In this document: piece by piece, positions 20,065 to 25,363 of the stretch
Layout of the letters: each line of letters begins with the position of its first letter
Position numbering within the stretch: the first letter of the stretch is position 1
From: a virus
DNA: 64,000 nucleotides
Strand: one strand, 5' to 3'
IMG/VR virus record: IMGVR_UViG_3300028800_002449
Translations under genes and position numbers: made by a program
The notes under the pieces: model-generated
What the model was told of the DNA's origin: nothing
Databases searched by the model: none
What the model saw: the letters and a program-made list of their open reading frames with translations, nothing else

Positions 20065-20324
20065 CGGGACCTTTGGGTAACTACGATGGGAACGACAGGA
20101 ACTTTTAGGATCTTGAAATCGAACTGAGCGGCTGAACGTTGAGACTGACGCAAGCGCTTGAAGAACTTCGAACCCCAGTCAGCGCCCAGGATTTTCGTGA
20201 TCGCCCGATAGCCCAGGTCCCACGCATCCAACTTCGACTCAGCAAGCGTTCCCTTGATCGGCCGCCCATACCGAGTGAGGACGTAGGCATACATAACGGG
20301 CTTTTCAGAGCGTCTTGAACTCAT
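20061..20324 (-). CDS. Hypothetical protein, 87 aa
   Basis: ORF. Confidence 0.4.
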   Translation of the reverse strand: MSSRRSEKPVMYAYVLTRYGRPIKGTLAESKLDAWDLGYRAITKILGADWGSKFFKRLRQSQRSAAQFDFKILKVPVVPIVVTQRSR

Positions 20325-21126
20325 CTCTCACCACACGCTCGAACGTCATGAACTCCTGGCTGTGCGTGAGGTCTGGCCTCCACGCGAGCCCCATCGACTT
20401 CAGGTCGTGAGTCGTCTTGATGTACGCGCCGGGGATTATTTTTCCGGAGGGATCTCTATCACGTCCCATGATCCAGAGCACGTCCGAGATCTTGATGGCC
20501 TCGCGGATGTCGTGCGTGATGACGAGGATCGAAAGCTCTTCCGCGCTGCTCGCGACCTCCTGGATCAGCTGGCACGCCATGTCCTTCATCACCGGATCGA
20601 GCCCGGCGAAGGGCTCGTCCATGATGAGGACGTGACTCGAACAGAGGATCTGCTGGGCGATGGCGGCTCGCTGGCGCTGACCTCCGGAGAGCTGTGACGG
20701 GTAGGCGTCCTGCCGTCCGTCGAGGCCGAACTTGACGAGGATCTCCTTGGCAGCGATCGATGCTGCCGGTTCAGCTTTCCCTCCGCGGCTCGCCCCCAAG
20801 ACGAGGTTGTCCATCACGGACCTGTCCGCGAACAGCGGATAGTCCTGCGCGACGACGCCGACCTGACCTCTCTGCGTGGGATGTTGGTCGGAACCGATGA
20901 GGACTGCGCCCGAGTCAGGCTCTTCGAGCCCCGCGATGATCCGCAGGAGCGTCGACTTCCCGATGCCCGAAGGACCGAGGATGCCCACGACTTGCCCCTG
21001 CGTGAGACCCTCGCGGAAGATGTCCTTGACGACGCCCGTGACGTTCTTCAACACGACCGTGTCGCCGTAGGACTTGCCCACCTTGTCGAGGCTCAGCAGC
21101 GTCCCCTTCTCTTCGTACGCGATCAT
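20305..21126 (-). CDS. ABC transporter ATP-binding protein (NitT/TauT-like)
   Basis: Walker A GPSGIGKST, signature LSGGQRQR, Walker B ILIMDEPF. Internal Met MIAYEEKG used as start. Confidence 0.85.
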   Translation of the reverse strand: MIAYEEKGTLLSLDKVGKSYGDTVVLKNVTGVVKDIFREGLTQGQVVGILGPSGIGKSTLLRIIAGLEEPDSGAVLIGSDQHPTQRGQVGVVAQDYPLFADRSVMDNLVLGASRGGKAEPAASIAAKEILVKFGLDGRQDAYPSQLSGGQRQRAAIAQQILCSSHVLIMDEPFAGLDPVMKDMACQLIQEVASSAEELSILVITHDIREAIKISDVLWIMGRDRDPSGKIIPGAYIKTTHDLKSMGLAWRPDLTHSQEFMTFERVVRDEFKTL

Positions 21127-22085
21127 CGGCGCTCCAGCTTGAGGAACGCGTACGGGCAGAGGACGCGCTTGATCCACGCGAGACCGGCATCGAACCCCAA
21201 GCCGACGGCGAGGATGACCAGCTGAAGAGCGAAGACGGACTCCATCTTGAAATGCTTGTCCTCGTTCAAGAGGAGCGTTCCGATGCCCCCTTCGGAACGG
21301 ACGAGCGACTCGACGACGGTCAACATCATCCAGCCCATGGCGGCGTTCTGCCTCATCACGTCGATCGCCTGATCTCTCGTCCCCCTGATGACCACCTCCC
21401 AGACGACGCGCCACTCGCCCATGCGCAGCGTCCGCGCATAATCGAATGCGGGCCTCGGGATCGCGCTGACCACGTCAGCCATCGACGTTACGAAGTAGAC
21501 GGTCATGCTGAAGGTCAACATCGCCAGCTTCAGCGAGTGACCATCAGACGTAGCCAACGTGAAGAAGAACGTCAGACCTACGAACCCAAGGAAGCGGAGC
21601 TTCGTCAGCGCAGCGACCATGGGTCGCATCCACGACAGCACGGTCAAGTAGGAGAGCCCGAGGCCGATGACGGCCGTGAGCGCGAGCGCCTCGATGTTGA
21701 GGACGAGAGACGAGATCAGGTTCCCGACGAGGCCCTTCTCCATGAGGTGGGGGAAGGCTTCGAGTATGTCGAGCGGACGAGGAACGAGGGGGCTCCTCGT
21801 CATCCAGAAGAGCCCGAGGACGATCAGCCACAAGGAGACGTCGACCAACATGGCTCGACTCCGCCACGTCTGGTTCGGCGTCAGAAGACGGTTGAACATG
21901 GATCTCGTCTGCACCTGGGGCCCCTTCGCTTCAAGCACGACGTAAGACAGCGGTCGGACCCACCGGAAGGCGCGGACCCAGTCTCGATACCAAGAGGCGA
22001 TCTTCTCGGCGCGTTCGCGGCTTTGGATCTTGCCGCGAACGCGCGTCGGAGGATCGTCTGTCGTCCAGACTTCCCAGCTCACGCG
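21123..22085 (-). CDS. ABC transporter permease (binding-protein-dependent inner-membrane component)
   Basis: Six or more hydrophobic helices; GTG start in a GTGA overlap with the upstream stop. Confidence 0.75.
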   Translation of the reverse strand, partial: RVSWEVWTTDDPPTRVRGKIQSRERAEKIASWYRDWVRAFRWVRPLSYVVLEAKGPQVQTRSMFNRLLTPNQTWRSRAMLVDVSLWLIVLGLFWMTRSPLVPRPLDILEAFPHLMEKGLVGNLISSLVLNIEALALTAVIGLGLSYLTVLSWMRPMVAALTKLRFLGFVGLTFFFTLATSDGHSLKLAMLTFSMTVYFVTSMADVVSAIPRPAFDYARTLRMGEWRVVWEVVIRGTRDQAIDVMRQNAAMGWMMLTVVESLVRSEGGIGTLLLNEDKHFKMESVFALQLVILAVGLGFDAGLAWIKRVLCPYAFLKLERR

Positions 22086-22405
22086 ACCTTGTCGACCTCG
22101 ACGAGCTTCTCGTGCGGATCCACCTGCACGGTCGCTTTGAACTCGTGCTTGCAGGTCATGCACTTGAGCACGACGTTGTTGTGCTTCACTCCGGGGGTGA
22201 CGGCGTCTCCGATGATCTCCCAGTGGAGACAGTCGCCGCAGGTGCAGGCCAGGACCTTCTGTGTTTTGGGCATCTGTTCTCTTCTTTCTTTTGTTGTTAG
22301 CAGGTTGGTATCAGACCAGTGACACTCACACTCACACTCATCGCCACAATCGTGAATGCAAATGGCGCAAGGAAGGCCTAGAGCACTTTCTCTTGCGCCC
22401 TTCAC
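22079..22405 (-). CDS. Cys-rich metal-binding hypothetical protein, 108 aa
   Basis: CAICIHDCGDECECECH and CTCGDCLH clusters. Confidence 0.4.
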   Translation of the reverse strand: MKGARESALGLPCAICIHDCGDECECECHWSDTNLLTTKERREQMPKTQKVLACTCGDCLHWEIIGDAVTPGVKHNNVVLKCMTCKHEFKATVQVDPHEKLVEVDKVA

Positions 22406-24231: not shown

Positions 24232-24392
24232 GATCTCTCCTTCTCCTTTTTCTTTTTCGATTCGGTCATCTGTCTACGTTCTTCAACTTCCTGCGCGGCT
24301 GCGGCCATGCCGAAGCCCCAGAAAGCGAACAAGCTCCATGCGACGAGGATGGCGCCGGGGAAATGGCGGACCACCTGCCATCCCCACATCAT
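24225..24392 (-). CDS. Unlisted micro-ORF, about 56 aa, membrane peptide
   Basis: MMWGWQVVRHFPGAILVAWSLFAFWGFGMAAAAQ... from the tail of artefactual ORF 24222..25406(-). Fits exactly between the neighbouring genes. Confidence 0.3.
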
Positions 24393-24397
24393 CTTCG

Positions 24398-25363
24398 TCA
24401 GCGGGTCGCGCTCTCGATTGCGACGACCTTCACCGGAAGCTTCGCGGGGACCTGCCCGATCTGGCCGACGGTCTCCTCGAACGACGCGAGGACCTTCTGG
24501 CCATGCTCGGCGTCCACGATCTTGCCCAGCTCGATGTCGTTCATGATCGGCTGGAGGTCGATCATCATCTGGTCGATCTGGCCGAGCTTCAGAGCGGAGT
24601 CCTGCGCGATGGCCTCCATCGCCTCGTTGAAGATGGCCTTCTTCTCGGGATCGCCATTGATCGCCGCCATCACGTCGGCAGCGGCCTCGCTGCCCTCGGT
24701 GAGCGCGGAGTTCGTCTCGATGGCGAGCTTGACGGCCTCCTGCTGCTCCTCGACCTTGAGCTGCGCGTTCTCCAGACCGTTCTGCATCGTGTCTGTGAGC
24801 TTCTGCTGCATGTCGAGCTGAGCCTTCAGCTTCTTGTTGGCGGCGTCGACACCCCCGAGCATGCGCAGCTGGGCGTCCCTGCGGGGGATCTGCCCGAGCT
24901 TCTCCGCGGCCTTCGCGAGGCCGGCCCGCTGCTGGATGGTGTCCTCGTTCTTGCCGATCTGCATCCTGATGCGGTTGTTGGCCGCGCGAAGGTGAGCGAG
25001 ACGCTCCTTGCCGTCGGCGATCCGCTGCTGCATGCACCCGATGATGTAGTTGACGATGTCGAACGGGGCGCGCTGGACGATCATGTTGTGGATCTTCCGC
25101 GTCAGCACGGCGAAGCCGAGCGTGAACACGGATCGCATGCCTTTGTTGAGAACCGCATACGCTATGATCGTGACGCCGAGAGCGCTCGCGCAGATCGTGA
25201 AGATGTTCGTCATCGCCAGCGCTATGTACGGCAGCGCGAGGTAAACGCAGCCTCCGATGACCGCCAGCGTGGCGATGCCGATGACGGAGCCAGTCACTTT
25301 CTCCTTGCCTATCATCGTCCCGCGGAGCGAAGGGGGAAGAAGCTCGGTGCTGCTGTCGGCCAT
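24398..25363 (-). CDS. Membrane-anchored coiled-coil protein (PspA/TelA-like architecture)
   Basis: Two N-terminal TM helices followed by about 230 aa of Gln/Ala/Glu-rich coiled coil. SD AGAGGAGACACC. Confidence 0.45.
   Translation of the reverse strand: MADSSTELLPPSLRGTMIGKEKVTGSVIGIATLAVIGGCVYLALPYIALAMTNIFTICASALGVTIIAYAVLNKGMRSVFTLGFAVLTRKIHNMIVQRAPFDIVNYIIGCMQQRIADGKERLAHLRAANNRIRMQIGKNEDTIQQRAGLAKAAEKLGQIPRRDAQLRMLGGVDAANKKLKAQLDMQQKLTDTMQNGLENAQLKVEEQQEAVKLAIETNSALTEGSEAAADVMAAINGDPEKKAIFNEAMEAIAQDSALKLGQIDQMMIDLQPIMNDIELGKIVDAEHGQKVLASFEETVGQIGQVPAKLPVKVVAIESATR

Follow-up and report, generated by a model that had tools for sequence, protein, structure and literature searches.

The window, by which we mean the whole 64,000-nucleotide stretch analysed here, comes from a source contig of 260 kb and carries on its minus strand, at positions 20305-25363, a four-gene ABC importer module in which complete genes follow one another in the order C (PspA-like protein), S (binding protein), P (permease) and A (ATPase). 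The initial annotation had described the genes as transcribed together from a 'type 1 promoter', and both parts of that description held: the promoter corresponds to a real repeated motif, TCTTGNNNAARAT, present at 7 distinct sites on the minus strand where chance alone would give 0.1, and the genes lie as one unit behind a promoter-like or operator-like motif (TCTTGCGTAAAAT, 25443..25455, minus strand) located just upstream of C in an AT-rich island (25419-25491). The ribosome-binding site AAGAGGAGA precedes the ATG start codon of C at 25363, and the next motif copy (19301..19313, minus strand), upstream of an MVP-like gene, likely marks the end of the module's transcription unit. Together with 4-nt overlaps at the P/A junction (A start, P stop) and at the junction of P with a small upstream ORF, z (P start, z stop), this arrangement supports the prediction that C-S-P-A forms a single transcription unit.

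Several small minus-strand ORFs accompany the four genes. ORF z (22079..22273), between S and P, encodes a 64-aa Cys-rich, zinc-ribbon-like product with a weak Pfam DUF4379 match; of about 89 loci, 11 have the Cys-rich ORF, though not always in the same place, and we classify it as an accessory gene without a conserved position. A separate 55-aa ORF between C and S (24222..24389), called by the ENA annotation and containing one hydrophobic segment, had been counted as a small membrane peptide of the unit; the ATPase, permease, 600-aa S and coiled-coil C all stand as parts of it, but the peptide does not, being confined to this contig. No homologues outside its own contig were found among the loci compared, the related phage L006 (78%) has merely a 52-nt gap at this point, and we regard the ORF as a questionable gene that does not belong to the conserved module. 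Downstream of A, two ORFs within 19714..20324 (87 aa at 20061-20324 and 116 aa at 19714-20064) are apparently co-transcribed with the module; neither had a family match in Pfam or PADLOC, and an all-against-all locus comparison revealed no conserved gene cluster downstream of A.

The proposal that the locus encodes a complete importer of the NitT/TauT structural class was borne out by Pfam and NCBIfam domain matches and by the catalytic motifs, and the ATPase and permease are both intact rather than fragments. A (20305..21126, minus strand, 273 aa) matches Pfam ABC_tran at E 1.3e-29 (104 bits, cut-off 25), and its Walker A motif (G50-T59), Q94, LSGGQ (146-150), Walker B motif (D170-E171) and H205 can be read directly in the sequence. 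These motifs are kept in at least 85% of 80 homologues, and A is predicted to be a catalytically complete ABC ATPase; it also ends in a conserved extension, about 50 aa long, that contains the motif ...MGLAW.... P (21123..22082, minus strand, 319 aa) is a type-I importer permease by its match to BPD_transp_1 (35.1 bits, cut-off 26.4, residues 81-242 of the core). Its core of about 256-258 aa begins at an ATG at 21899; the roughly 60 aa ahead of it are an N-terminal extension specific to the clade, which is kept in the 79%-identical L006 homologue, where there is no internal ATG. The NCBIfam models nearest to P are SaoP, NtrB and TauC, each scoring far under its cut-off, and no substrate-specific equivalog cut-off in NCBIfam was reached, the best scores being 143 against 458 bits for A and 41 against 295 bits for P (SaoP). 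Profile scores of this kind place the importer in a structural class and not in any named substrate family.

S (22429..24231, minus strand, 600 aa) was resolved by domain searches and a structure model (pTM 0.84) into a hydrophobic helix (residues 5-28, 24148-24219) followed by a disordered linker, a type II periplasmic binding domain of the TauA/SsuA/NrtA class (residues ~62-470, 22822-24048) and an OmpA-like peptidoglycan-binding domain (residues 484-600, 22432-22782). The N-terminal helix is a signal peptide or membrane anchor. The OmpA domain claimed for this protein in the initial annotation is clear (PF00691, 64.3 bits, cut-off 27.2); D531 and R546, the Asp and Arg expected as ligands for the peptide stem, do not vary among 82 homologues, N539 and L542 are invariant or nearly so, and the domain, as judged from the alignment, retains the predicted peptidoglycan-binding residues. 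The middle domain, which had been put forward for HMM classification, could be placed in its class but matched no NCBIfam model. S is the cognate extracytoplasmic solute-binding protein expected of a type-I ABC importer, and W83, E186, D187, D221, W294 and D298 in its binding domain are invariant or nearly so among the 82 homologues. As a conjecture, an amine or sugar-like ligand would suit the invariant Trp, Asp, Glu and Asn residues.

C (24398..25363, minus strand, 321 aa) was characterized by hydropathy, profiles, AlphaFold and Foldseek. Hydrophobic segments at residues 26-44 and 55-73 form a two-helix hairpin (about 26-73), after which come an amphipathic helix and ESCRT-III-like helices, and the positive-inside rule places the helical domain in the cytoplasm. 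The AlphaFold model, of moderate confidence (pLDDT 64), has helices at 100-155, 159-223, 239-278 and 285-303, a pattern that fits the ESCRT-III fold (a helix 1-2/3 hairpin, then helices 4 and 5); its best Foldseek matches are Vipp1, PspA and CdvB2, with weak E-values of 7e-3 or worse. In profile searches, in which coiled-coil composition inflates the scores of C (bias 9-21 bits), one family profile (A2) reached Vipp1 (PDB 8qhv) at E 9e-6, whereas a deeper profile (A6) did not reach Vipp1 or PspA chains in the PDB at E < 0.01. PspA_IM30 (PF04012) is the Pfam family matched by the most C relatives in scans of 74 family members (6 of the 74, best E 1.8e-6); no Pfam model matched the window protein searched alone. 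Among about 9,500 ORFs, the sole non-family matches to the C profile below 1e-5 were four operon-linked cellular PspA_IM30 proteins, the next being at 2e-3, and hhalign aligned C with these operon-linked proteins at 95.6-95.9% probability with both profiles (the 95.6% value with E 1e-8 over 209 columns); two unrelated helical families run as controls reached 39% and 8%. Since A6 misses the Vipp1 and PspA chains of the PDB, the tie of C to canonical PspA runs through the operon-linked bacterial subfamily. On this sequence evidence C is a probable PspA/IM30-type protein of the ESCRT-III superfamily, predicted to be held on the inner membrane by its two-helix hairpin. Of the earlier label 'PspA/TelA-like', the first half is thus upheld by the profiles and the Vipp1 match; TelA gave no match at E up to 0.01 and is absent among the 25 most-matched families listed for the 74 relatives.

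In an IMG/VR scan, relatives of S turned up in 89 viral contigs, from which 79 loci were kept; these, with this contig, related contigs and cellular loci, make up the 89 loci analysed. The bare order C-S-P-A occurs in 62 of the 89, with 8 more containing one extra ORF or a split S, and C is present in 82. In IMG/VR the order extends over more than 70 viral contigs with GC contents of 22-64%, 27 of them at least 200 kb long, and C stays directly upstream of S while S identities fall to ~32%. Some 80 viral contigs contain the gene set, among them the largest phage genome published, and two published huge phages, LR756500 (462 kb) and LR756501 (735 kb), have the whole module. The C family comprises 1,201 cluster representatives at 50% identity. 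In about 73 other phage loci a fifth, coiled-coil gene, U, lies ahead of C; the window lacks it. The view that such importers are unusual cargo for phage-like elements does not survive these counts: the gene set is conserved across huge phages and is thus not stray cargo. Gene adjacency is an indirect indicator of functional coupling.

A bacterial operon of the same kind, comprising PspA, PBP-OmpA, permease, ABC ATPase, TM-Snf7 and double-AAA+ genes, was noted computationally by Ravi et al. (2024, mSystems, PMC11237479; section 18 and Table S3), who give the string PspA -> SIG+PBPB+OmpA -> TM(s) -> ABC-ATPase, with OGG56892.1 of Candidatus Handelsmanbacteria as an example. In our collection, PspA, S, P, A, TM-Snf7 and AAA+ genes occur together in four cellular loci (L008, L092, L223 and L225). 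HMM and phmmer searches with the cellular proteins as queries found neither the membrane-anchored Snf7-like protein nor the AAA+ ATPase in the 64-kb window or within 8 kb on either side of phage-type loci, and no description of a phage form of the operon without these two genes was found in the literature.

We consider it probable, from gene content and order, that the module is the huge-phage version of this bacterial PspA-associated ABC/OmpA envelope system and that its four co-transcribed proteins work on the host envelope during infection. S, fixed at the peptidoglycan layer, would bind a small periplasmic solute and pass it to a P2A2 transporter for ATP-driven uptake, while C would polymerise on the cytoplasmic face of the same inner membrane; jointly, the four proteins may keep that membrane sealed, energised or locally remodelled through the long infection cycle of a huge phage. 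The phage form would dispense with the Snf7-like protein and the double AAA+ ATPase, and C would supply its own membrane anchor. Our best inference for the role is a unit that maintains or remodels the inner membrane and is coupled to the uptake of a solute; counting against it are the lack of an AAA+ partner in the phage loci and of gene U in the window.

The initial annotation had left the choice between an auxiliary metabolic module and an envelope-associated complex, and we favour the latter: the metabolic reading is weaker because the PspA-like gene almost always adjoins the importer and because in bacteria the counterpart takes the form of a PspA/Snf7/AAA+ operon. A plain auxiliary metabolic importer for one nutrient (sulfonate, nitrate, bicarbonate, pyrimidine or similar), with the PspA-like gene a mere neighbour, is unlikely given that C keeps its place directly upstream of S across the whole range of GC content and S divergence described above, that the bacterial homologues sit in PspA/Snf7/AAA+ operons and not in sulfur or nitrogen assimilation operons, that no substrate-specific NCBIfam model was reached, and that the known nutrient systems matched here have no peptidoglycan anchor on their binding protein. 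PspA and ESCRT-III proteins seal damaged membranes, and a phage-encoded, envelope-located set conserved in huge phages could accordingly be a conflict module, either changing the envelope to exclude superinfecting phages or repairing or pre-empting membrane damage by pore-forming or depolarising abortive-infection effectors; Al-Shayeb et al. (2020) remarked that the membrane and surface proteins encoded by huge phages may change how susceptible the host is to other phages. We nevertheless judge this improbable, since PADLOC returned generic ABC ATPase and OmpA/MotB (ZorB) matches only and no known defence-system family, and since the need for an importer would be left without explanation.

Transport might be absent altogether, with S riveting the ABC complex to peptidoglycan as a trans-envelope tether or mechanotransducer and ATP hydrolysis driving conformational work on either the wall or the PspA-like polymer, in place of the missing AAA+ ATPase. 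The anchoring elements at both ends of S, the fixed inter-domain orientation that its pTM suggests, the missing AAA+ partner and the conserved C-terminal extension of A are compatible with such a device. Known mechanotransmitting ABC systems use the MacB/FtsX type, however, whereas P has a type-I importer fold, and the binding domain of S keeps a highly conserved set of residues, polar and aromatic, such as a ligand site usually has, which makes this account very unlikely. It is extremely improbable that the DNA represents an island of the host chromosome or a bacterial fragment assembled wrongly, for although close cellular homologues exist at 48-57% identity and some related contigs have been binned into bacterial MAGs, every gene is on the same strand, small orphan ORFs are numerous, there is a repeated promoter motif of phage type, the contig carries collagen-like tail-fibre and tail genes and an MVP-like gene common to huge phages only, and the window pair falls outside the cellular clade in the S tree. 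No flanking host core genes were found, and the earlier description of the element as virus-like can be sharpened: judged by its size and gene content, it is a huge phage.

The name PspA refers to a response to phage attack, and in this case it is phages that encode a probable PspA-family protein, within a module of wide conservation. Should that module indeed maintain or remodel the host membrane, no ESCRT-III-like system would have been assigned to bacteriophages before it, and it would help to explain how phages of 200-735 kb keep the host alive and energised until virions are built. A further proposal, which we offer tentatively and hold to be possible but doubtful, is that huge phages carry a minimal, AAA+-free ESCRT-III-type membrane machine, in which a self-anchored PspA-like polymer physically coupled to a wall-pinned ABC importer repairs or reshapes the host inner membrane, and from which the bacterial operon may descend; such a machine might serve in surviving pore-forming abortive-infection effectors, in closing the phage's own entry wound or in building infection-specific membrane structures. 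The module offers a tractable four-gene, AAA+-free version of the bacterial PspA/ABC/OmpA system, and with it the connection that was proposed in 2024 between membrane remodelling and solute transport can be tested directly. We caution against scoring C-S-P-A genes in viromes as nutrient 'auxiliary metabolic genes'.

Compared with the NitT/TauT importers (TauABC, SsuABC, NrtABCD/CmpABCD and ThiXYZ), the phage module is set apart by the 8-13% identity of S to their binding proteins, by missing all substrate-specific NCBIfam cut-offs widely, by the fusion of its binding protein to an OmpA domain and by genomic partners concerned with membrane remodelling and not assimilation. OmpA anchors are carried by a stator, secretion-system subunit or lipoprotein in MotB/PomB, TssL/TagL, Pal and YiaD, whereas in S the anchor is on a solute-binding protein. 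C shares with PspA, Vipp1 (IM30) and LiaH a predicted helical hairpin architecture and the conserved Asp-Pro motif that opens helix 1 (P100 in C, where the Vipp1 alignment starts), but it is very divergent, permanently anchored by its N-terminal hairpin and without PspF/PspBC or LiaI-type partners.

The closest system is the bacterial PspA-ABC-OmpA operon, which is known from comparative genomics alone. Its published gene string agrees with phage C-S-P-A, the window included; its homologues are 46-53% (binding protein), 57% (permease) and 48% (ATPase) identical, and it likewise has a PspA-family gene directly upstream of the binding protein. Conversely, phage C has its own two-helix membrane anchor whereas the bacterial PspA starts with a soluble amphipathic helix, and most phages add the coiled-coil gene U upstream. 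In a neighbour-joining tree of S, the bacterial sequences group in a single clade that lies inside a much more diverse set of phage sequences, which suggests that the bacterial operon may descend from the phage module.

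Nearly all genes of the window, whose GC content is ~61%, lie on the minus strand. From 25363 down to 20305 they encode, in this order and all on that strand, a 321-aa coiled-coil protein (C, 24398-25363), a 55-aa ORF (24222-24389), a 600-aa OmpA-fused binding protein (S, 22429-24231), a 64-aa Cys-rich ORF (22079-22273), a 319-aa permease (P, 21123-22082) and a 273-aa ABC ATPase (A, 20305-21126). A is an ABC ATPase by Pfam (ABC_tran, 1.3e-29), and its Walker A, Q-loop, LSGGQ, Walker B and H-switch motifs are present and kept across 80 homologues. P is a BPD_transp_1 permease (Pfam), with SaoP, NtrB and TauC as its closest NCBIfam models, each matched far under cut-off; because the 60-residue N-terminal extension that P has in the window's clade is kept in a relative, 79% identical, whose gene lacks an internal ATG, we take the longer start to be the real one. 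S begins with a hydrophobic helix (residues 5-28) and a disordered linker; the large domain that comes next has no match among the Pfam or NCBIfam sequence families, and the C-terminal part is an OmpA domain whose ligand residues D531 and R546 are invariant among 82 homologues. The initial annotation rightly described a complete importer whose binding protein is OmpA-tethered, but the small membrane peptide that it counted within the unit, the 55-aa ORF, is present only in this contig and was rejected as a conserved component, as was the Cys-rich ORF, which occurs in 11 loci at varying positions. The comparisons made here show what each of the four remaining parts is, that all are intact, how they are ordered and that they are conserved, and we consider the module's identity and conservation very probable.

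The motif TCTTGNNNAARAT occurs at seven distinct minus-strand sites (9716, 15040, 19301, 25443, 27509, 63229 and 63865) against 0.1 expected by chance, mostly within AT-rich islands and directly 5' of minus-strand genes; genes 3' of its copies include those for RtcB, a ParB-like protein, an MVP-like protein, C and the ThyX unit, among others. What had been called a type 1 promoter is thus a genuine repeated element, which may be a phage-specific promoter or regulator-binding site; being partly palindromic (TCTTG-N3-CAAGA), it may act as an operator rather than a promoter. One copy lies 80 nt 5' of C and the next precedes the MVP-like gene; a scan of the interval for minus-strand terminators found none, and P and A each have a start that overlaps the stop of the gene before. 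This motif spacing, the absent minus-strand terminator and the overlapping starts argue that C through A, plus two or three small ORFs, likely form a single transcription unit, so that the co-transcription proposed earlier for the importer and the coiled-coil gene still stands. A sigma-70 scan was uninformative, with 2 promoter-like sites against 0.9 expected, and the terminator scan with its lack of minus-strand sites told equally little by itself.

The element carrying the window is a huge phage, and an identical S protein is encoded on a 260-kb metagenomic contig (ENA ERZ27245399). Other minus-strand genes of the window encode an RtcB RNA ligase (8417-9679), a ParB-like protein (14058-14987), a ThyX-type thymidylate synthase (26029-27030; PHROG match only, with no Pfam match), a 400-aa protein matching tail proteins (44349-45551) and a nucleotidyltransferase (58941-59990), with tRNA-Gln(CTG) at 58522-58598 on the same strand. 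Two collagen-like tail-fibre ORFs of 1840 aa (45272-50794, minus strand) and 1449 aa (52062-56411, minus strand) match many PHROG families and lie in stretches of 72-74% GC, and a sugar-modification cluster (27764-41749, minus strand) encodes GT2 and GT4/GT1 glycosyltransferases and C-methyltransferases, together with a nucleotide-sugar 4,6-dehydratase/epimerase (40709-41749, minus strand). The MVP-like gene (16413-19220, minus strand; ~935 aa; Pfam MVP_shoulder 3e-19, Vault_3 6e-11) belongs to a kind already reported, viral MVPs having been described in a 2023 preprint (10.1101/2023.11.10.566534). Its product matched only LR756500 (462 kb) and LR756501/3 (735 kb) in a tblastn search of a phage collection, at 37% identity, and a pattern scan found MVP relatives on 52 IMG/VR contigs, 3 of which also carry the C-S-P-A module. 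We rejected it as a module member because it has its own copy of the promoter motif and because, in other loci, the ±8 kb around the module do not contain it.

Scanning IMG/VR with two peptide patterns yielded 89 viral contigs with an S relative, from which 79 loci were kept, 27 of them on contigs of 200 kb or more, with the whole set spanning 22-64% in local GC. ORFs were called in all 89 loci analysed (these 79 plus this contig, related contigs and cellular loci), and iterated HMMs then found relatives of C in 82, of S in 86, of P in 83 and of A in 80. The bare order C-S-P-A on one strand occurs in 62 loci, and 8 more keep that order but have S split or a single additional ORF. Among published huge-phage genomes, LR756500 encodes all four genes, identically ordered and 26-38% identical to those of the window, and the complete module is present in LR756501, which is the largest of the phage genomes in Al-Shayeb et al. 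(2020). Adjacency of C and S-P-A persists at ~11-22% identity in C and ~32% in S. All-against-all comparison revealed a fifth gene, U, directly 5' of C in ~73 phage loci (L010-L088; L005, 5990-6751; L226, 4409-5137); its ~225-aa product has no Pfam match and consists of a disordered N-terminal part and then helices or coiled coil. There is no U in the whole window or in its close relative L006.

In two loci the neighbours of the phage-type set are notable. On a 37-kb contig (L224, ENA ERZ27245620), genes for a class-A penicillin-binding protein and PolA flank U-C-S-P-A, and on a 159-kb contig (L228, Logan SRR21686417) the set adjoins NAD-salvage genes (NadM-like and NAMPT), with a Band_7 protein five genes 3' of the set. 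Phage-type modules were also found in bacterial metagenome-assembled genomes (MAGs), namely on a 15.8-kb contig of a Candidatus Saccharibacteria MAG (L093) and on the 162-kb contig L006 of MAG GCA_037024775.1; both are probably phage contigs swept in by binning. A 479-kb contig classed as viral (L014, IMG/VR 3300044957_000763) has no C and carries the cell-type order S-P-A-x, x being the membrane-anchored Snf7-like protein of a bacterial operon; this is a cellular contig wrongly classed as viral or else a phage carrying the cellular form.

The C family is large: clustered at 50% identity, it has 1,201 representatives with E ≤ 1e-3 and 881 with E ≤ 1e-10. The window's C alone matched nothing in Pfam, NCBIfam or PADLOC, but a 74-member family alignment matched Vipp1/IM30 chains best in the PDB (8qhv, E 9.3e-6; 7o3w, 1e-4), the Vipp1 alignment beginning at a conserved Asp-Pro motif that opens helix 1. 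Pfam PspA_IM30 was matched by 6 of the 74 members, and no family was matched by more; a word-indexed protein search with the same alignment returned only close relatives of the window's protein. A C-family HMM made without cellular sequences matched the PspA_IM30 proteins of 4/4 bacterial operons. For an independent profile, A6, built from 150 cluster representatives, these four proteins were the only non-family matches below E 1e-5 in ~9,500 ORFs (next at 2e-3 or above), and hhalign aligned A6 with them at 95.6% probability (E 1e-8, 209 columns) versus 39% over 32 columns for U and 8% for x as controls. Searched against the PDB, A6 gave generic coiled-coil matches only, with no Vipp1 or PspA chain at E<0.01. 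An AlphaFold model of C from a narrower alignment (pLDDT 64, moderate confidence) has a two-helix hydrophobic hairpin and, beyond a short amphipathic helix, four long ones; filaments of Vipp1 and PspA head its Foldseek matches, with weak E-values. Coiled-coil bias contributes to all of these scores.

From these profile and model comparisons we conclude that C is a probable homologue of the operon-linked PspA subfamily, and hence a probable member of the PspA/IM30/ESCRT-III superfamily, in which a permanent hairpin anchor precedes the N-terminal amphipathic membrane-binding helix. Basic residues at both ends of the hairpin suggest, by the positive-inside rule, that the helical domain would be cytoplasmic. 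The earlier description of C as a PspA/TelA-like coiled coil therefore survives in its PspA half, at the level of the family, and the TelA half was abandoned, Pfam scans having given no TelA match for C at E up to 0.01 and no TelA among the 25 families most matched by its 74 relatives. Homology of C to x was likewise rejected (hhalign 1.5-8%, hydrophobic segments only), and a 346-aa protein of the cellular locus L003, considered as a bacterial counterpart of C, gave nothing in BLASTP and belongs to the x family.

Full-length S homologues number in the hundreds, and S-P-A sets occur on cellular contigs of Acidobacteriota, Myxococcota, a gammaproteobacterial MAG and others, a range that is poorly sampled since the bacterial-genome scan for S was swamped by the OmpA pattern (full-length S in 5 of 80 loci). 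Their partners are a PspA_IM30 protein, x (a membrane hairpin plus helices) and a ~570-590-aa AAA ATPase. All three accompany S, P and A in four loci (L008, L092, L223 and L225), a gene set identical to the operon tabulated in Ravi et al. (2024; PMC11237479), a comparative-genomics study that gives it a single paragraph and a single table row; two further loci (L003 and L227) have the order P-A-x-S. In a neighbour-joining tree of 82 S sequences, built without support values and with cellular sequences sampled by similarity to the window, the six cell-type-operon sequences fall in a single clade that sits within a far more varied set of phage-type sequences, and the window and L006 are a long-branched pair outside that clade. 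The module is unlikely to have been captured recently from an acidobacterial host.

The persistence of adjacency despite divergence, together with the bacterial version in a PspA/Snf7/AAA+ operon, leads us to treat the four proteins as one envelope unit. S would be exported, kept near the inner membrane by its N-terminal helix (a cleaved signal peptide or an anchor) and would grip peptidoglycan through its OmpA domain; ligand would pass from S to P2A2 and be imported at the expense of ATP, and C would assemble on the cytoplasmic face of the same membrane. The unit's likeliest task in a long infection is to look after the infected cell's inner membrane, whether by keeping it intact, by keeping it energised or by remodelling it locally, and we give membrane maintenance or remodelling coupled to uptake about an even chance of being the role. 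A plain nutrient importer, the odd cargo of the initial annotation, is the first rival, but the persistent adjacency to C and the bacterial operon favour the envelope-associated complex that the annotation had offered as its alternative. A conflict module, acting in exclusion or anti-defence, is a second; a known defence system was rejected, PADLOC giving generic domain matches only. A non-transporting tether would agree with the OmpA domain, but the residues invariant in the binding domain of S across 82 homologues (W83, E186, D187, D221, N237, N249, W294 and D298) argue for a real ligand common to phage and cellular forms. Host contamination, the last rival, is very unlikely: close cellular homologues would fit it, but the collagen-like tail-fibre genes, the repeated motif and the MVP-like gene, matched only in huge phages, tell against it.

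No mention of the phage module was found in the huge- and jumbo-phage literature covered outside subscription journals, which took in the source paper of LR756500 and LR756501, a 224-genome jumbo-phage comparison, a 2026 jumbo-phage review and further jumbo-phage surveys; it is likewise absent from an ESCRT-III review and from the viral-MVP preprint. One jumbo-phage survey describes a pspA-like gene adjoining terD in gut jumbo phages, a different context. Neither x nor the AAA+ ATPase was found within ±8 kb in phage loci or anywhere in the 64-kb window. The phage and bacterial systems are homologous, but the phage system has a self-anchored PspA and another accessory gene, and it is widespread and conserved among huge phages. 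The bacterial operon had already been noted (PMC11237479); what appears to be new is its phage version, with its own membrane anchor on PspA and without Snf7 or AAA+ partners nearby.
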